Source: Candidatus Pacearchaeota archaeon
GTDB taxonomy: Archaea; Nanobdellota; Nanobdellia; Pacearchaeales; GW2011-AR1
Reading direction: 5' to 3'
Assembly: GCA_040879805.1 (NCBI GenBank)
Contig: JBBDJP010000006.1
Location: 3,699-67,698 of the forward strand
Length of the DNA: 64,000 nt
Shown here: positions 23,369 to 32,546 of the stretch, piece after piece
Layout of the letters: the number at the start of each line of letters is the position of its first letter
Position numbering within the stretch: the first letter of the stretch is position 1
The notes under the pieces: model-generated
Databases searched by the model: none
Told to the model about the DNA's origin: nothing
Seen by the model: only the letters and a program-made list of their open reading frames with translations
Program-made: the position numbers and the translations under genes

Positions 23369-24523
23369 ATGGCAAAAATAAGTCCAGTATCTATAAAATA
23401 TATGATACATGCAAATTTTAGAGTAGAAGGTGCACTAGAAAAGCCCGACATAATAGGTGCTATCTTTGGTCAAACAGAAGGACTTTTAGGGGCAGATCTT
23501 GAAATGAGAGAACTTCAAAAAGAGGGAAAAATTGGAAGAATTGAAGTTGAAGTTAACCGGGACAGAAAATTGACAACAGGTATAATAAAAGTCCCTACAG
23601 CTCTGGATCAATCTGAAACTACTCTTGTTGCGGCAGCAATTGAAACTATAGAGAAAATAGGTCCTTGTGATGCACAGGTTGAAATAGATAAGATCGAGGA
23701 TGTTAGAGGTAACAAACGAGATTATATAATTGAAAGAGCCAAAAAACTTATGTCTGAAATAGGCGGAACTGCAGATTCAAGAGAAATCTCAAAAATGATA
23801 AAGGATTCTGCTAAAGTTTCAAGCGTGCAGAAATATGGTGACGATGATCTTGCTGCAGGAGATCTTTCTGGGAAAGAAATAATTGTTGTTGAAGGAAGAG
23901 CAGATGTTTTGAATTTGTTGCGTGCAGGTGTAAAAAATGTTATTGCAATGAATGGGACAAAACTTCCGGAAACTGTTAAGAGTTTGAGTAAAGAAAAAGA
24001 CATAACTCTTTTTGTTGATGGAGATCGTGGTGGAAAGTTAATCATTAAGAATGTTCTTGACAATGCAAGAATAAAGTATGTCTGTATTGCTCCTGATGGG
24101 AAAGAAGTTGAAGAATTAACTGGGAAAGAAGTATTACAGACTCTTAGAAAAAAAGTCTCAGTAGAAGAATACCAGGAGAATTCTTCCGGTTCTCGTAAGA
24201 GTTCCGGAGGTTCTTCCTCATCTTCAAAAAAGAACTCTTTAAATCCTGAAAAAGTTAAAGAAAAACTTAAAAAAATTTCAAAAAAAATCGAAGGTTCAAA
24301 AAAAGCTATACTCTTTGATAATTCTTTAAAGGAAATGAAAAGAATCTCTGCAAGAGCACTTACAATTACATTAAAAAAATCACAGAAAAAACCTTTTGCA
24401 ATTATTCTTGATGGGACTGTAACAAAATCAACGATAAAAGCTGCTGAAAGAGCAGATGTCAAATTCATTGTTGCTAAAAACTTTACAACTACTGATACTC
24501 AACTTGAATTGGTGAGTTTTTAA
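23369..24523 (+). CDS. dnaG: archaeal DnaG-type (TOPRIM) primase/exosome-associated protein
   Basis: TOPRIM core IIVVEGRADVLNLLRAGVKNVIAMNGT ... LFVDGDRGG. The N-terminal region is typical of archaeal DnaG. Confidence 0.85.
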   Translation: MAKISPVSIKYMIHANFRVEGALEKPDIIGAIFGQTEGLLGADLEMRELQKEGKIGRIEVEVNRDRKLTTGIIKVPTALDQSETTLVAAAIETIEKIGPCDAQVEIDKIEDVRGNKRDYIIERAKKLMSEIGGTADSREISKMIKDSAKVSSVQKYGDDDLAAGDLSGKEIIVVEGRADVLNLLRAGVKNVIAMNGTKLPETVKSLSKEKDITLFVDGDRGGKLIIKNVLDNARIKYVCIAPDGKEVEELTGKEVLQTLRKKVSVEEYQENSSGSRKSSGGSSSSSKKNSLNPEKVKEKLKKISKKIEGSKKAILFDNSLKEMKRISARALTITLKKSQKKPFAIILDGTVTKSTIKAAERADVKFIVAKNFTTTDTQLELVSF

Positions 24524-27310: not shown

Positions 27311-27919
27311 TTATATAAAAGGTACAAAAATAAATCCTGGAATTTCACTTATTGTTTTAAATTCATCTCCATCTCTCTTAATAATTACTATACTTTGTTC
27401 AAATCTAGGACCTTTGGGTGCTATAAGAATTCCTTTATCTTTTAACTGGTTTAGTAAATTCTGGGGAATTTCACGAACTGCAGCACTCATAAGAATCCTG
27501 TCAAAAGGAGCATCATCAGGAAGACCCTTCCATCCACTTTTGTTAAAAACCTGGATATTTTTGTAATCTTCAAGATTTTCTTTTGACTTTTTAGCCAGCT
27601 CATTTATAATTTCCATTCCAAAAACCTTTCCTTTTTTTCCAACAATTTTTGAGATTAGAGCAAGAACATAACCTGAACCAGATCCAACTTCAAGAACTTT
27701 TTGTCCTTTTCTTAAACTAAGTTCAGAAAGCATAAGAGCGATAGTATAAGGTTGAGAAATAGTCTGGCCTTCCCCTATGGGAAGAGCGGTATCTTCATAC
27801 GCTTTACTCTTAAGTTCTTCTGGAATAAAATATTCTCTTTTAACTGATGAAAATGCATCTAATATTTTCTTTTTAAAACCCATTGCTTTTAATTTGTTAA
27901 TGAGTTGTTCCTTGTTCAT
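27311..27919 (-). CDS. pcm: protein-L-isoaspartate O-methyltransferase
   Basis: ALPIGEGQTISQPYTIALMLSEL and VLEVGSGSGYV are canonical PIMT motifs. Confidence 0.9.
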   Translation of the reverse strand: MNKEQLINKLKAMGFKKKILDAFSSVKREYFIPEELKSKAYEDTALPIGEGQTISQPYTIALMLSELSLRKGQKVLEVGSGSGYVLALISKIVGKKGKVFGMEIINELAKKSKENLEDYKNIQVFNKSGWKGLPDDAPFDRILMSAAVREIPQNLLNQLKDKGILIAPKGPRFEQSIVIIKRDGDEFKTISEIPGFIFVPFI

Positions 27920-28000
27920 AAAAAGACGAAGGTAGGAGAATTTAAATATTATTTGTATTTCTTTTTTTAACTCTAACTTTTAGGCATTCTCAAAAATTGG

Positions 28001-28178
28001 ATTTAACATCAGAGATAAAAGAAGTTTTCGTAGCGTAGCAAAAAATTTGGGAAAAATACGAGCCGAGGCATTTTCCGGTTATCACTTGTTAGGCGAGGGT
28101 TTGATTTCTTTCCTTATTATATTATAAAGAAAAAGAAATCAAAAGCGCAGCGTCCCCTTGCGTTTGGGTTCTGGCGAC
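28001..28178 (+). repeat. GC-rich attC-like folded repeat, copy A
   Basis: ATTTAAC(28001-07)-atc-AGAGATAA ... TTATCACT-t-GTTAGGC(28088-94) forms an imperfect palindrome with terminal AAC/GTT cores and 2 unpaired bases on the left arm only. The inner block AATTTGGGAAAA.ACGAGCCGAG..ATTTTCC and the tail AAGCGCAGCGTCCCCTT..GCGTTTG are shared with copy B. Confidence 0.6.
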
Positions 28179-28631
28179 TTAGATTATTTTTTCCAAATAA
28201 ATAATATCTTCTCCGTCTGGAACACCAGATATACCCTTGGTTTTTAAGCATTTTTTGATTTGAAAACCAAATTTATAATAAAATGGAATTGCTGAAGTAT
28301 TTTTCCAATGCACCCAAAGAACAATTTTGCTTACTTTAGATTTAGTAATCTTTTTAAGAAAATAATACATCAAATTAGTTCCAATCTTCTTATTGCGAGC
28401 ACTTCTTAATACAGCGATGTCATTTATCTCGATTGCATCCTTTTTCATTACTGCAGAAATTGCAGCTATTATTTTTCCATTTTGTTTGTAAACCAAATTA
28501 TAATCAGGATGTTTTTTTAATCCTTCTAAAGTCCATTTTCTAATATCTTCGATATTAGCAAAAAGATTAGCATCTCTATACAATTTTACGACTGATTCTA
28601 AATCAGAAAAATTCATCTTTATTATAACCAT
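28179..28631 (-). CDS. GNAT-family N-acetyltransferase
   Basis: IAVLRSARNKKIGTNLMYYFL (R/Q-x-x-G-x-G/A acetyl-CoA motif), with the beta-strand pattern of GNATs. Length 150 aa. Confidence 0.8.
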   Translation of the reverse strand: MVIIKMNFSDLESVVKLYRDANLFANIEDIRKWTLEGLKKHPDYNLVYKQNGKIIAAISAVMKKDAIEINDIAVLRSARNKKIGTNLMYYFLKKITKSKVSKIVLWVHWKNTSAIPFYYKFGFQIKKCLKTKGISGVPDGEDIIYLEKII

Positions 28632-28690
28632 AAAAAATCAATTATTTCTTTAATTATATACTTTTGTTTCATTAGCCATAAACCTATTGA

Positions 28691-28868
28691 TTATAACATC
28701 GGCATTAACAGAAGTTGAGTTCTCCTCGTGACAGAAGGGAACAGAGCTGAGAACTCAATTTGGGAAAATCACGAGCCGAGTGATTTTCCTGTTAATGCCT
28801 GTTATACGAGGGTGAGGAGTGAAACGACGAAAGCGCAGCGTCCCCTTTAGCGTTTGCCGGAGCGCGCC
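28691..28868 (+). repeat. GC-rich attC-like folded repeat, copy B
   Basis: TTATAAC(28691-97)-atc-GGCATTAACAG(28701-11) pairs with CTGTTAATGCC(28789-99)-t-GTTATAC(28801-07). Inner stems are GTTGAGTTCTC(28714-24)/GAGAACTCAAT(28749-59) and GGAAAATCAC(28763-72)/GTGATTTTCC(28780-89). The tail is conserved with copy A to about 28868. Confidence 0.6.
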
Positions 28869-28907
28869 GAAAGTTATATAATTCAATTGAAACTAATTGA
28901 TTATAAT

Positions 28908-29528
28908 ATGAAATCTCAAACAATAACAAGTGAATGGTATAATGAGACTGGAGAAAAATGCTTGAGATTTTACAAGAAAAGTCAAGACAACGAAATAATA
29001 CAACTAAAAGAAGCGTTAGAAAAAATCCCTCGTAAATCAAAAATATTAGATGCTGGTTGTGGATTTGGAAAACCAGTAGCAAAATTTCTTTCACAAAAAA
29101 AATATCAAGTTACAGGAATTGATATTTCCAAAGAATTGATACAGCAAGCGCGGAAAAATGCTCCAAAAGCAAAATTCAAAGTAATGAGTATGTATGACTT
29201 GACATTTCCTGAAAAAACATTTGATGCGATTGTTTCCTTCTTTGCCATACTACATCTAGAAAAAAGCAAAGTTCTGCAAGTGTTTAAAAAATTTCATCAA
29301 ATTTTGAAAGATAATGGATATTTACTTTTTTCAGTAAATAGAGGCAAAGAAGAAGGTTATTTTGAATTCTTTGGAAAGAAGGTATTTTTCAGCGCATACA
29401 CAAAAAAAGAAATTGAAGAAATTTTACGTAAAACTGGCTTCAAGATAATTTGGAAGAGGGATTTTTTCTTTGAAACTCCTGATGGTTCTAAAGAACATCA
29501 ATTGTATTATTTTGTCCAAAAGAAGTAA
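28908..29528 (+). CDS. class I SAM-dependent methyltransferase
   Basis: ILDAGCGFGK (motif I) and AIVSFFAILHL are present. Track ORF 28854 starts at a TTG inside the repeat, so I use the ATG at 28908 (MKSQTITSEW...). Confidence 0.85.
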   Translation: MKSQTITSEWYNETGEKCLRFYKKSQDNEIIQLKEALEKIPRKSKILDAGCGFGKPVAKFLSQKKYQVTGIDISKELIQQARKNAPKAKFKVMSMYDLTFPEKTFDAIVSFFAILHLEKSKVLQVFKKFHQILKDNGYLLFSVNRGKEEGYFEFFGKKVFFSAYTKKEIEEILRKTGFKIIWKRDFFFETPDGSKEHQLYYFVQKK

Positions 29529-29592
29529 GGCGCGCGTAGGCAAATGTCGTATAACAAGATGTACTATTGAATTTATTCAGTAATACATTCTT
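29529..29592 (-). repeat. inverted, truncated copy (C) of the repeat
   Basis: GGCGCGCGTAGGCAAATGTCGTATAAC (29529-55) resembles the reverse complement of copy B 28801-28868 with an internal ~43-nt deletion. TCGTATAAC is an exact inverse of GTTATACGA at 28801-09, and GGCGCGC/GCGCGCC also match. It is followed by the hairpin AAGATGTA...TACATTCTT (29556-29592). No GTT core follows. Confidence 0.45.
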
Positions 29593-29646
29593 AAAAAGGG
29601 TGTAAACACAAATTATATAAATTTCCAAATTTAATTTCTTTTATAA

Positions 29647-32505
29647 CTAAACTTCCAGACTGACTATCTTACTGATGCCATCGTGCATACTGACTCCATA
29701 GATGTTTGAGGCCTTTGAGATGACTTCATCATTGTGAGTAATGACTATGTACTGGCCTTTCTGCATATACTTCTTAAGAAGCGCTGCAAGCCTCTCTGAG
29801 TTTCTTTTATCAAGAGCTGCATCTATCTCATCAAGCAAATAGAAATAATAAGGGTTATGCTCTTGAATTGCGAAAATTAACGAAAGAGCTACTAGTGTCT
29901 GTTCTCCTCCTGATAACGATTTAACATCAAAATACTTACCATGTCCGGTTTTAACTATGATATTAACTCCTGCTGAAAAAGGATCTTTTTTATTTTCAAC
30001 TTCAAGATAAACTTGTCCTTTAGTACTAAGTTGAGAAAAGTTCCTTGAGAAAAGTCCATTAATTTTTTCAAGAGTCTGAATAAATGCTTTCTTTTTCTTT
30101 ATATCAATTTGGTGGATTATCCTTAAAATCCCTTCTTTTTCATTGGAAATGGTTTCAGTTTTTTCCTGGATTTCATCATATTCTTTTTTAACTTCATCGT
30201 AAACTTCCAACGAACGTAAATTTACATTTCCAATTTTAGAGATTATTTCTTTTGCCCTTGATAGCCTATTGATCAGAGTTTCTTTTTTTGCCTTTATTAT
30301 TTGAATCTTTTCAAATTCAAGCATTTCAGTTTCAATATTTTCTCTTTCTGCATCTATTCTAGCCTTATCAATTTTAAGATTATTAAAAGAATTCTCAGAA
30401 TTATTAAGATAATTTTTATGGGAAAGGCTTTCAGATTCTTTTTCTCTTATTTTTGAATGTAATTGATCTCTTTCCGAGATAAGTTTCTTAAACTTTCCGC
30501 TCAACTCTTCATCTTGTCTTCTTTTTTCACTAAGATCTTTATTTTTTTCTTCAAAAGACTTTTTTAAAACAGAGAATTCTTTTAATATATCTTCCTCTTC
30601 ACTAACAATTTGTTTGAGGGAAATTTTCATTTTATCAATTTCTTTCTGCTTGAAGTTAACTTCAGAATCAATTGTCTCTTTAGTTCTTAGAGAAATGTCT
30701 TGAATTTCCATTTTAAGGTTTTCATACTTTTGATCAATATTAAAATTAGATTCTACAATTTTTTCCAGAGAGTTTTTTCTTTTTTCTAATTCTAAGATTT
30801 CTTCCTTAACTTTAGAAGATTTTTCATTAAGCTGTTTAATTTGAATTTTTTTATCTTCAATTCCAGAAATTATTTTTATATCAGATTCTGTTTTTGAAAC
30901 TTTTTGAGAAAGACTTTCAATATCTTTTTCAAGAATATCTTTCTTTCGATAAATTTCTCCTAACTCTTTGTCAGATTCGCTTATTTTATTTTTAAAAGAA
31001 TTAATTTTTGGAATAACTTCACTCTTTATTTCTTCCATATGATCAGGGGTTATTTTATTCTTACAAATAGGACAAATATCCATTTTTGAAATTTTTTCTA
31101 AAAGATTTCTCTGGTTTTTTATTTCAGACTCACTTACTGAACTCTGCTTTTCAAGTTCAAATTCTCTTTTAACTAGCTTACCCAATATAGACTTCTTATC
31201 TTCAACCTCAGACTTTATTTGATCAAGTTTCTTTTGACTAGATTTGTTATCAAAAATCTTTATAGACAAAGATTCTATCTGTCGTATTAACATATTTGAC
31301 TCATTCTCATAATTTTTCAAAAGACTTCTTTTATCTTCTAACCTCTCCTTAACTGAAGATAACTCTGATTTTACCATATAGAATTTTTTTCTTTGTGATT
31401 CAATTTTATCAAGAATCTTTTTCTTTTCCTCTATCTCTTTTTTCTTTTTGTCTGGGGTTGGAGATTCTTTTTGGATTTCCTTAAGAGAAGCAGTTATATC
31501 TGATATTGAATTTTTTATTTCTTCTTTTTGATTTTTCAAATCTGATAATTTAGATTCATAATTTTCAAGTTTTACTTTTATTCCTGCAAGTTCTGCCCTT
31601 AAATTTGCAATATCTTGATTCAATTTTTCTTGCTCAAAACCAGTAGATTCTTCTATATCGGAATTAATTTCATTTATTCTAGAATTATATTTTTTTATTT
31701 CAGATTCTATTTCAAAAATTTTCTTCTTTATTTTTTCAATTTCTTTATTCTTTTTTTCAATTTCTTTAAGAACATTTTCTCTTTCCTTATTCTTTTTTTC
31801 TAGATCATGGCTCAATATACTTGCCTTAAAATTTTCTATATCCTCTTTAAGTTTCTTATATTTTAATGCTTGCTTCCTCTCATTCTCAAGATTATTTAAA
31901 TAAGAAGTCCTTTCTCTAAGAACTGATTGAATTTCTTTAAGTTTTTCATCTGTTTTTTCCAATTCTTTAAGAGACTTTTCCTTTCTAGATTCATAAATTG
32001 AAATGCCCGAAACTTCTTCAATAACTCCTCTTCTCTCATCTGGCTGCATTCTTACAAAGTTCTGAATTTCTCCTTGAAGAATTATGTTGAATCCTTGAGG
32101 GTCTATTCCTGCTTGTGCAAGCACTGAAAGAACTTCTTGCCTAGTTTTTGTTTGTCCATTTATTTTGTAAATACTCTGACCATTCTTTCTAACAATTCTT
32201 TTCAAACTTAATTCATCCTTATCAATAGAAAAAGTTCCTTCAGAATTATCAAATATAATTTCTACAGAAGCCTCTTTTGCAGGTGAAGCTGCTTTAGATC
32301 CCATAAATATAAGATTACTTGCTTTGGCTGCCCGAAGTGATTTTATTGATAAACGTCCAAGAACAAAACAGATTGCATCAGAAACATTTGATTTTCCTGA
32401 ACCATTTGGTCCTAGAATAACATTAATACCTCTTGAAAAAGGCATTTCAGTTTTCTTTGGAAAGCTCTTAAATCCATGCATCACCAATCTTTTTATGTAA
32501 GACAT
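29647..32505 (-). CDS. smc: SMC-family ATPase with SMC-type head but a central CPxC zinc-hook motif instead of a hinge
   Basis: N-terminus MSYIKRLVMHGFKSF...ILGPNGSGKSNVSDAICFVLG...LRAAKASNLIF. C-terminus LSGGEQTLVALSLIFAIQ...FYLLDEIDAALD...YIVITHND. Heptad-rich sequence fills the space between. MDICPICKNKITPDH has its first Cys at aa 482 of 956 (nt 31063-31074). The start is moved to the ATG at 32505. Confidence 0.8.
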   Translation of the reverse strand: MSYIKRLVMHGFKSFPKKTEMPFSRGINVILGPNGSGKSNVSDAICFVLGRLSIKSLRAAKASNLIFMGSKAASPAKEASVEIIFDNSEGTFSIDKDELSLKRIVRKNGQSIYKINGQTKTRQEVLSVLAQAGIDPQGFNIILQGEIQNFVRMQPDERRGVIEEVSGISIYESRKEKSLKELEKTDEKLKEIQSVLRERTSYLNNLENERKQALKYKKLKEDIENFKASILSHDLEKKNKERENVLKEIEKKNKEIEKIKKKIFEIESEIKKYNSRINEINSDIEESTGFEQEKLNQDIANLRAELAGIKVKLENYESKLSDLKNQKEEIKNSISDITASLKEIQKESPTPDKKKKEIEEKKKILDKIESQRKKFYMVKSELSSVKERLEDKRSLLKNYENESNMLIRQIESLSIKIFDNKSSQKKLDQIKSEVEDKKSILGKLVKREFELEKQSSVSESEIKNQRNLLEKISKMDICPICKNKITPDHMEEIKSEVIPKINSFKNKISESDKELGEIYRKKDILEKDIESLSQKVSKTESDIKIISGIEDKKIQIKQLNEKSSKVKEEILELEKRKNSLEKIVESNFNIDQKYENLKMEIQDISLRTKETIDSEVNFKQKEIDKMKISLKQIVSEEEDILKEFSVLKKSFEEKNKDLSEKRRQDEELSGKFKKLISERDQLHSKIREKESESLSHKNYLNNSENSFNNLKIDKARIDAERENIETEMLEFEKIQIIKAKKETLINRLSRAKEIISKIGNVNLRSLEVYDEVKKEYDEIQEKTETISNEKEGILRIIHQIDIKKKKAFIQTLEKINGLFSRNFSQLSTKGQVYLEVENKKDPFSAGVNIIVKTGHGKYFDVKSLSGGEQTLVALSLIFAIQEHNPYYFYLLDEIDAALDKRNSERLAALLKKYMQKGQYIVITHNDEVISKASNIYGVSMHDGISKIVSLEV

Positions 32506-32546
32506 TAAAAGAAACAAGGAAAAAAGGTTTAAAAGATTTTATAGGG

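Follow-up and report, generated by a model that had tools for sequence, protein, structure and literature searches.

How two accessory genes, accompanied by folded repeats, came to lie between pcm and smc in a DPANN archaeon is the question raised by the interval 28000-29571 on a contig from a metagenome-assembled genome (MAG) of Candidatus Pacearchaeota (GenBank assembly GCA_040879805.1, contig JBBDJP010000006.1). All coordinates refer to the analysed stretch of this contig, 64,000 nucleotides (nt) in length and hereafter called the window. An initial annotation of this DNA had proposed integron-type cassettes with attC-like sites and no integrase in view. In substance the proposal was upheld by the arrays, the single open reading frame (ORF) per unit, the breakpoints at AA|C, the recombinase and the attI-like site described below, whereas the orientation, a third repeat copy and the assignment to classical attC sites had to be given up. 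It is very probable that the interval is the decayed, integrase-less end of an integron-like gene-capture platform, holding two cassettes in a variable smc-pcm spacer. The window locus itself is a decayed relic, and the main interest lies in the family of related loci beyond it.

Two repeat units, A (about 28000-28175) and B (about 28690-28868), form the basis of this reading. Their sites have the same orientation and stand 690 nt apart with a GNAT acetyltransferase gene between them, and an attI-like half-site follows; the window therefore shows two same-orientation sites separated by a single ORF with no integrase nearby, which is the layout of a cluster of attC sites lacking an integrase (CALIN). 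Each block conserved between A and B occurs exactly twice in the window, against 0.00-0.03 occurrences expected by chance. All sequence features quoted in the initial annotation are present, and A and B are direct repeats as it had described them, with a 57-nt block that is 81% identical and an 18-mer (AAAGCGCAGCGTCCCCTT) identical in both; the lengths of 94 and 117 bp assigned to them were too short, the aligned units being longer and sharing three conserved blocks. The GC-rich character claimed for both holds for B (0.40-0.54 compared to 0.18-0.30 around it) and is modest in A. The elements of the locus are as follows.

28000-28007, plus strand: junction of site A with its R-box 5′ arm (GATTTAAC); predicted crossover at 28006/28007 (AA|C), the AAC being invariant in the family alignment.
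28003-28093, plus strand: Y-shaped core of site A (nhmmer E = 7e-33).
28007-28696: GNAT cassette, its left end being the predicted crossover in site A.
28097-28159, plus strand: tail of site A, consisting of GGG, an AT-rich hairpin, AAAGCGCAGCGTCCCC (with a GCGCAGC mini-hairpin) and a GGG/CCC closure; fold z = -2.7.
28163-28175, plus strand: left arm of the private inverted repeat of the GNAT cassette (TTTGGGTTCTGGC), degenerate, matching its partner at 28675-28689 in 9/13 positions as judged by eye.
28179-28631, minus strand: GNAT acetyltransferase ORF of 150 amino acids (aa) (Pfam Acetyltransf_1/7/10).
28675-28689, plus strand: right arm of the GNAT cassette repeat (GCCATAAACCTATTG), degenerate on inspection of the sequence.
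28690-28697, plus strand: junction of site B with its R-box 5′ arm (ATTATAAC); predicted crossover at 28696/28697, the boundary of the GNAT and methyltransferase cassettes.
28693-28805, plus strand: Y-shaped core of site B, intact according to DNA and RNA folds and covariation.
28697-29554: methyltransferase cassette, bounded against the GNAT cassette in site B.
28810-28847, plus strand: tail of site B (GGGTGAGGAGTGAAACGACGAAAGCGCAGCGTCCCCTT), with GTGAAAC and GCGCAGC mini-hairpins.
28853-28868, plus strand: left arm of the private inverted repeat of the methyltransferase cassette (TTTGCCGGAGCGCGCC), complementary to 29529-29544.
28908-29528, plus strand: class I S-adenosylmethionine (SAM)-dependent methyltransferase ORF of 206 aa, counted from the ATG at 28908 (Pfam Methyltransf_11/23/25/31).
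29529-29544, plus strand: right arm of the methyltransferase cassette repeat (GGCGCGCGTAGGCAAA), abutting the methyltransferase stop codon.
29544-29571, plus strand: attI-like, dif-like site with left arm ATGTCGTATAA at 29544-29554, predicted crossover at 29554|29555 and spacer CAAGAT.

Both cores have the inverted ends and the inner inverted pairs that had been noticed at first reading. Site A is built of helix P1 (TTAACA/TGTTAG), a TC bulge, helix P2 (AGAGATAA/TTATCACT, with one mismatch), a short P3 and an imperfect P4 with the loop GAGCCGAG, and site B of P1 (ATAACA/TGTTAT), the same TC bulge, P2 (28701-28710 with 28790-28799, GGCATTAACA/TGTTAATGCC), a long P3 hairpin and a P4 in which 28763-28772 pairs with 28780-28789 around the loop GAGCCGA. 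Site B folds at -29.9 kcal/mol, far below its shuffles (z = -7.9 with DNA parameters, -4.7 with RNA parameters). The fold of site A is no better than shuffles (z = +0.44, DNA parameters), and A is therefore regarded as a decayed copy.

An exact scan with the three conserved blocks, taking one genome per species, returned 49 loci. With a profile built from these loci, the family amounts to 86 copies in 48 genome loci plus the window, and the repeats are real rather than chance occurrences. One locus from high-GC Actinomycetes (L044) was discarded as a chance match, since nhmmer gives it no support. By record label the hosts include the candidate phyla radiation (CPR, Patescibacteria), DPANN and other archaea (the DPANN labels being Woese-, Nano-, Aenigm-, Iain-, Alti- and Nanohaloarchaeota), uncultured Gammaproteobacteria, Pseudomonadales, Bdellovibrionales and records named simply 'bacterium'. 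The presence in both domains does not depend on small bins, because contigs of 918 kb and 1.0 Mb carry copies. The same three-block pattern found 0 matches among IMG/VR viral contigs, and hence no link to these viruses.

In 34 distinct copies, 96% of the cells of the Y fold are paired and compensatory changes occur in 21 of its 34 pairs; shuffles reached any of the observed fold measures in 0 of 500 trials, and sliding the partners by 1-3 columns reduced pairing to 40-54%. The Y fold is under selection. Its anatomy consists of an R-box helix pairing ..TAAC(A/G) with TGTTA.., a 2-nt bulge, a 10-bp helix of freely varying sequence, and a three-way junction formed with a variable hairpin (GAAGTT...AATTTG, with an invariant G.T) and a second hairpin. 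The bulge results from the spacer asymmetry that the initial annotation had seen in A and B (3 nt against 1 nt), which is a constant of the family, ATC or GTC standing on the left arm and T on the right. Insertions in P3 account for the variable length of the central part, also noted at first, and whole sites measure 89-116 nt. A pseudoknot between the P4 loop (GAGCCGAG) and the tail was considered and rejected, there being no complementarity.

Much of this anatomy is that of an integron attC. The inverted AAC and GTT cores are invariant in 34/34 copies and helix 1 is 100% paired, although the strict consensus is kept in a minority (RYYYAAC in 9/34 copies, GTTRRRY in 8/34), and helix 2, with compensatory changes at 9 of its 10 pairs, corresponds to the L-box pair. 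The L-box helix carries no extra base, however, and the sole asymmetry is the 2-nt TC bulge between the R and L helices, placed on the 5′ arm of the better-folding strand. In classical sites such as attC_aadA7 and VCR the extrahelical bases lie in the L box and on the other arm, the R″-L″ arm of the bottom strand. When each strand was folded with DNA parameters, as the initial annotation had suggested, the plus-orientation strand was the more stable in 34/34 cores (mean -17.6 vs -14.9 kcal/mol), which is the strand opposite to the cassette ORFs. Moreover, C-GNA-G triloop mini-hairpins (such as GCGAAGC, GCGCAGC, GCGTAGC and ACGAAGT) number 100 on the plus strand and 0 on the minus. In DNA, mini-hairpins of the d(GCGNAGC) type have exceptional stability, and one of them is found on the bottom strand of attC_aadA7. 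As in attC sites, then, it is the bottom strand that folds better; its recombinogenic role is a prediction, and the modelled folds suggest that the site acts as folded DNA on the strand opposite to the genes.

The arrangement of copies along the genomes points in the same direction. In loci with multiple copies these all have the same orientation and lie 0.4-2 kb apart, with one ORF between neighbours, and 34 of the 37 gaps have their longest ORF on the opposite strand. As a rule this ORF fills the gap, with 0-100 nt separating its stop from one element and about 50 nt separating its start from the following one. An ORF-then-attC layout thus runs on the strand opposite to the elements, which makes the window's minus strand the top strand of its cassettes, and the orientation originally read must be reversed: the plus strand is the better-folding bottom strand. 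The GNAT gene has exactly this canonical layout, with 3 nt between its stop and the repeat arm and tail belonging to site A, and about 65 nt between its start and junction B. The methyltransferase ORF has the minority orientation, found in 3/37 gaps elsewhere, and an inversion between its own repeat arms may be one possible origin of it.

The same cassette can also be found in different genomes, with similarity that ends exactly at ..TATAA|, in the AAC of the next site. Three pairs of loci illustrate this.

L025 and L032: identical through ...CAAATGTCGTATAA, then divergent.
L030 and L049: identical through ...GTCGTATAAC, followed by the attI-like (recombinase-proximal) site in L030 and by another Y site in L049.
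L035 and L037: identical through ...GTCGTATAAC, followed by the attI-like site in L035 and by another Y site in L037.

Because shared cassettes end precisely there, the crossover is placed at AA|C on the folding strand, and the behaviour of the three pairs is what would be expected from attI x attC and attC x attC exchange. A main crossover at G|TT on the plus strand, where the initial annotation had expected the breakpoints, was rejected: boundary polymorphism occurs at AA|C, shared cassettes end at the next AAC, and the next Y core differs.

A tblastn search of the genome loci with an IntI1 sequence as bait found a tyrosine recombinase of about 270 aa at the array end in nine of them. Both things for which a search had been proposed at the outset, further copies and a recombinase, are thus present, although the enzyme is not of the IntI type. 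The gene follows downstream of the last element, on the same strand as the element, and so is divergent from the cassette ORFs like intI. Compared across bacterial and archaeal hosts, the recombinases show 39-47% identity. Among NCBIfam models they score above the cutoff of XerA_Arch (218-250 bits), a model named 'site-specific tyrosine recombinase/integron integrase', and match the integron-integrase model TIGR02249 in two stretches and below its cutoff (193-237 bits, with about 45 profile positions missing); XerC/XerD models give about 183-200 bits. Since the XerA_Arch and TIGR02249 scores are nearly equal, these enzymes stand between XerA and IntI by sequence. Their best match in the PDB is XerA (5HXY, E = 4e-48), collinear throughout, whereas only residues 13-185 and 246-319 of VchIntIA can be aligned: the 60 residues in between (186-245), which are the IntI-specific additional domain (patch III region), are replaced by 16.

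In seven of the nine loci (L009, L016, L017, L020, L030, L036, L042) a dif-like site lies 47-127 nt upstream of the recombinase, with the consensus aTgTCGtATAA-N6-tATAtGCGAa (ATGTCGTATAA as the left arm), and the first cassette ends there. Its 11-6-11 layout was judged by eye; the breakpoints fall after ..ATAA, and the predicted cleavage is at the arm-spacer border. A metagenome scan with the recombinase alignment recovered the same arrangement on the independent contigs L058, L059, L064, L065, L070 and L083, and more weakly on L069, while no Y sites were present beside the longer relatives (about 312 aa) from that scan. The related loci thus possess an attI-like insertion site beside the integrase, and the window retains the left arm alone intact, its right arm (TGTACTATTGA) being degenerate compared to the family tATAtGCGAa. 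From the left arm, smc ends 90 nt further on. Beyond the one at 29544, the window contains no other dif-like junction motif, only the two Y sites, and no tyrosine recombinase was found in it. Such integrase-less relics are not rare, because six other loci (L002, L015, L024, L034, L035, L047) likewise end at a dif-like site without a recombinase.

A further component sets the family apart. Between the ORF stop and the Y core lies a tail of mini-hairpins closed by an invariant GGG/CCC, and copies that match the profile only to position ~113 have other tail variants rather than none. The initial annotation had recognised a conserved tail after the GTT core and was right as to its presence; it had placed the tail behind the attC in the next cassette, whereas with the orientation reversed the tail lies between ORF stop and attC as part of the repeat unit. 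We also considered whether it could be the remnant of a group IIC-attC intron and rejected this, as there is neither a GUGYG start nor a domain V-like sequence. Past the tail comes a stretch of 12-24 nt, and its exact reverse complement is located beyond the ORF, directly ahead of the following ..TCGTATAAC junction. Such an exact match, 11 nt or longer and close ahead of that junction, was found for 33/45 tails, compared to 5/37 and 4/45 in two controls, and the median match was 14 nt against 9 in both; the arms of a private inverted repeat therefore lie just within the two ends of every cassette. This explains the supposed third, inverted and truncated copy at 29529-29592. The sequence quoted for 29529-29557 is correct, but it represents the private right arm of the methyltransferase cassette (GGCGCGCGTAGGCAAA, the partner of TTTGCCGGAGCGCGCC at 28853-28868) fused to the dif-like left arm. 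When cassette ends are joined in silico, the two repeat arms become base-paired, as do TCGTATAAC and GTTATACGA, leaving the tail as a side hairpin; the self-joined junction is more stable than the in-array context in 19/19 cassettes (mean -44.0 vs -30.1 kcal/mol), and that of the methyltransferase cassette folds at -52.5 kcal/mol. The extended helix could serve to stabilise the folded site, or to let a recombinase without the IntI domain recognise it. Beside this, L017 and the pair L025/L032 (distal tail TTTGAGAGTGTGCC, then GT..) have different ORFs and the same private repeat arm, diverging just after ..GCCGT, and many private arms are followed by GTTA while the partner arm is preceded by TTA; the tip of the extended hairpin may thus be a second, inner point of exchange.

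From these parts a mechanism can be proposed. Read on the plus strand, a cassette comprises the Y site, the GNA-loop hairpin tail, one private repeat arm, the ORF (normally on the opposite strand), the other arm and a half-site ..TCGTATAA. Comparison of the loci places the crossover between the A and the C of the 5′-terminal AAC of the folded plus (bottom) strand, a position equivalent to that in integron attC sites and to the arm-spacer border of a Xer/dif-type site. By analogy with IntI, the recombinase would insert circular cassettes by recombining a folded single-stranded site with the dif-like site, and would excise them by recombining two folded sites. On circularisation the two private arms and the R box would join into a long helix with the tail as a side hairpin, which may stabilise the folded site. 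The window locus has no integrase, a decayed right arm in its dif-like site and a site A that can no longer fold; unless site B is served in trans by a recombinase, this machinery is therefore probably inactive there.

The likeness to classical integrons, CALINs included, is therefore extensive: arrays in one orientation in which a folded site comes after each single ORF, AAC...GTT cores in inverted arrangement, a second helix whose tip varies, site lengths of 89-116 nt, the better-folding bottom strand and crossover at AA|C, a divergent tyrosine recombinase with the insertion site just upstream, and a cassette that stands at attI in one genome and between attC sites in another. Unlike them, the family has a recombinase devoid of the IntI-specific domain, a bulge on the 5′ arm of the folding strand, a tip that is a sequence-conserved three-way junction, a site extended by the hairpin tail and the cassette-private inverted repeat, a symmetric dif-like insertion site and few cores (8-9/34) that fit RYYYAAC/GTTRRRY strictly. 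Its architecture is that of an integron, and two features that define classical integrons, the IntI domain and the extrahelical-base geometry, are absent. Functionally it would operate like an integron and also like the Xer-exploiting elements that offer a folded hairpin to dif. Among Xer enzymes, XerA, XerC, XerD and the 'Cand' recombinases share with it the collinear two-domain organisation of about 270 aa, the 5HXY match and the score above the XerA_Arch cutoff; the differences are a nearly equal integron-integrase score in spite of the missing segment and the linkage to cassette arrays, a role in dimer resolution being without support. The 'Cand' group was listed in a survey of tyrosine recombinases as Xer-related enzymes of candidate phyla with only a possible Xer role as function (Smyshlyaev et al., 2021, PMC8138268). 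A further system worth comparing is found on Acinetobacter plasmids. There, Xer-type sites enclose separate gene modules, the pdif modules, that travel from one replicon to another, which resembles the present arrangement, but their boundaries are inverted pairs of double-stranded XerC/D sites, with no folded hairpins, unidirectional arrays or linked recombinase.

Such comparisons raise the alternative that no dedicated platform exists, and that the units are integrative mobile elements exploiting Xer (IMEX) that use the host machinery as CTXphi does, the attI-like site being the chromosomal dif and its neighbour the housekeeping XerA/Xer. The collinearity with XerA, the score above the XerA_Arch cutoff and the 11-6-11 insertion site with arm ends ..ATAA/TTAT.. 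would all agree with this, as would the seven arrays, the window's among them, that have no recombinase beside the site. CTXphi itself integrates at dif via XerCD by means of folded single-stranded hairpins that mimic dif, so that a Xer-type recombinase, a double-stranded dif-like target, a folded partner and tandem accumulation are common to both systems. It has also been suggested that 'Cand' recombinases may stand in for Xer in candidate phyla (Smyshlyaev et al., PMC8138268). We nevertheless consider this explanation unlikely: the recombinase gene is physically and tightly linked to the site (47-127 nt) in lineages of both domains, the 39-47% identity across the bacteria-archaea divide suggests a dedicated and horizontally transferred unit, and the cargo consists of integron-like single ORFs rather than phage or island genomes with genes for replication or morphogenesis, the folded sites staying between cassettes and allowing exchange cassette by cassette. 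The relic between smc and pcm shows no sign of a terminus either, GC skew across the window following the gene strand and being uninformative on this point. A classical integron remnant is distinctly improbable, that is, a CALIN of ordinary attC sites served in trans by a canonical IntI, with the short recombinases nearby being incidental. Integrons were reported in Archaea in 2022, mostly as integrase-less clusters and including Nanoarchaeota, with IntIs that carry the additional domain, and IntI1 was found to recombine archaeal attC sites (Ghaly et al., PMC9668308). Cassette arrays and CALINs in archaeal MAGs, DPANN among them, and the cross-domain sharing of attC sites are thus common to that work and ours, and the AAC/GTT cores, L-box helix, length, bottom-strand bias and ORF-attC layout would fit. 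Only short-type recombinases, however, were found beside the arrays, both in the nine genome loci and in the metagenome loci, none of their ~312-aa relatives from the metagenome scan has such a site nearby, and bulge geometry and conserved junction are unlike those of classical attC. A family spanning CPR and DPANN and its short recombinase are not described in that paper, and the family motifs (GAGCCGAG, GCGCAGCGTCCCC) and contig prefixes are absent from its supplement, although overlap with its attC set was not established.

That the repeats are structured RNA genes or untranslated-region elements (riboswitch, ribozyme or small RNA) is highly improbable, in spite of the strong covariation for a defined fold and of the conserved G.T, which would be a G.U in plus-strand RNA. 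Rfam 15 gave four tRNAs only for the window at the gathering threshold and nothing above 18 bits for 27900-29700 even at E up to 10, and ARAGORN likewise returned four ordinary tRNAs only. The favoured strand is antisense to the cassette ORFs, the 100 against 0 strand bias concerns triloops that are a signature of DNA mini-hairpins, and the elements bound exchangeable gene units exactly and end at a recombinase-linked site. Hardly any credit can be given to independent insertions of a repeat derived from an insertion sequence or resembling a miniature inverted-repeat transposable element (MITE), the fallback named in the initial annotation. Terminal inverted sequences do exist and copies do break assemblies, many lying at contig ends; an exact look-up placed the window GNAT and pcm proteins only on short Logan contigs, which stop inside the repeats and offer no wider context. 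The copies of an array, however, always have the same orientation with one per ORF, target-site duplications were not seen beside them, they have no associated transposase, and the inverted repeats flank the ORF and not the element.

Several points also weigh against the integron-like platform itself. Comparative anatomy is the sole source of the mechanism, and the window contributes two sites, one of them decayed, and one half-site. Strand choice and chemistry could differ from those of integrons, because the bulge is on the other arm and the domain that reads such bases is missing. Many of the family loci come from MAGs, and one contig of 1,948 nt occurs with 100% identity in a Nanoarchaeota MAG (L005, 1-1948) and in a Patescibacteria MAG (L043, 2-1949) of the same study series; the host labels of short loci consequently need care, as repeat-bearing short contigs are binned ambiguously. 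The left ends of cassettes are less tidy than the right: L004 and L041 share tail and ORF, and their Y core is a different allele. Five copies (L001, L014, L033, L038, L039) have non-complementary P2 arms, in L033 also P4 arms, and together with L004/L041 they indicate that exchange inside sites also happens, or else assembly chimerism. The arms of these five derive from different site alleles, with switch points at different conserved stretches, and their cores are either real recombinants between sites or assembly chimeras.

Taking a step further, we tentatively propose that the family is a separate integron-like lineage crossing the domain boundary between CPR and DPANN, a possibility to which we give somewhat less than an even chance. 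Its Xer-like integrase would never have acquired, or would have lost, the IntI domain, and would instead read a composite folded site made of the R/L helix with 5′-arm bulge, the conserved three-way junction, the GNA-hairpin tail and a private repeat that zips up on circularisation. If so, the family would either stand between Xer/dif and integrons as a surviving intermediate or have invented cassette capture independently, and would constitute a direct route of gene sharing between two groups of ultra-small episymbionts. The origin of integrons from Xer/dif has so far been approached by mutating IntI (Escudero et al., 2016, PMC4792948). A natural and widespread cassette platform with a Xer-like enzyme and a differently built folded site would make this transition testable with real components. 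A literature search on integrons and attC sites in Patescibacteria (CPR) and DPANN, and on XerA in this connection, brought up no such cassette system or CPR-DPANN site family, though its coverage was incomplete and a prior description is possible. IntegronFinder requires the IntI-specific domain. Tools of this kind would not call these platforms complete integrons, so that cassette gene flow in CPR and DPANN may be under-counted.

Turning to the surroundings of the window locus, the two flanking genes are as follows.

27311-27919, minus strand: pcm.
29647-32517, minus strand: smc, with its stop codon at 29647.

The ORF list and Pfam uphold the two accessory genes between them, GNAT on the minus and SAM methyltransferase on the plus strand, as originally annotated. 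In three relatives, whose pcm is 71-72% identical, smc and pcm are neighbours in the same order as in the window, with 24-977 nt of unrelated content between them: 24 nt in one, a ParE-type toxin pair with a third small ORF in another and a single ORF of 208 aa in the last. The comparison of this interval that had been suggested at the outset thus found the insert absent, the spacer content different and no Y sites between smc and pcm in any of the three. Because of this the interval is regarded as a variable spot and its 1.7-kb content in the window as lineage-specific, and the GNAT and methyltransferase genes as acquired cargo outside the core neighbourhood. A tblastn search against all fetched loci gave no homologues of either gene in other arrays, so that these two cassettes could not be shown elsewhere. 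In 28632-28696 and in 28869-28907, a TATA-like AT-rich box (TATATAAT and TTATATAA, respectively) lies about 25-30 nt upstream of the start of the cassette ORF, and each cassette may therefore carry its own archaeal promoter, independent of a platform promoter.

Some minor observations concern the wider neighbourhood. In the first 27 kb or so of the window, the plus strand carries every ORF of 180 aa or more with one exception (23722-24468, inside a plus-strand ORF); the orientation turns to minus at pcm (27.0-27.3 kb), where the sign of GC skew flips too, and the relic lies about 1 kb beyond. The Smc of the relative L056 (2513-6976) has 1,487 aa and contains an intein with a LAGLIDADG endonuclease domain (Pfam Intein_splicing, LAGLIDADG_3), while that of the window has 956 aa and no intein. 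In L052 (6000-6100) the terminal ~35 nt of smc (..ATTTCTAAAATTATTAGTCTTAAAGT.TAG) occur twice at a distance of about 60 nt, immediately ahead of a DUF7557/ParE toxin-antitoxin pair, and this looks like the scar of another insertion in the smc-pcm spacer.

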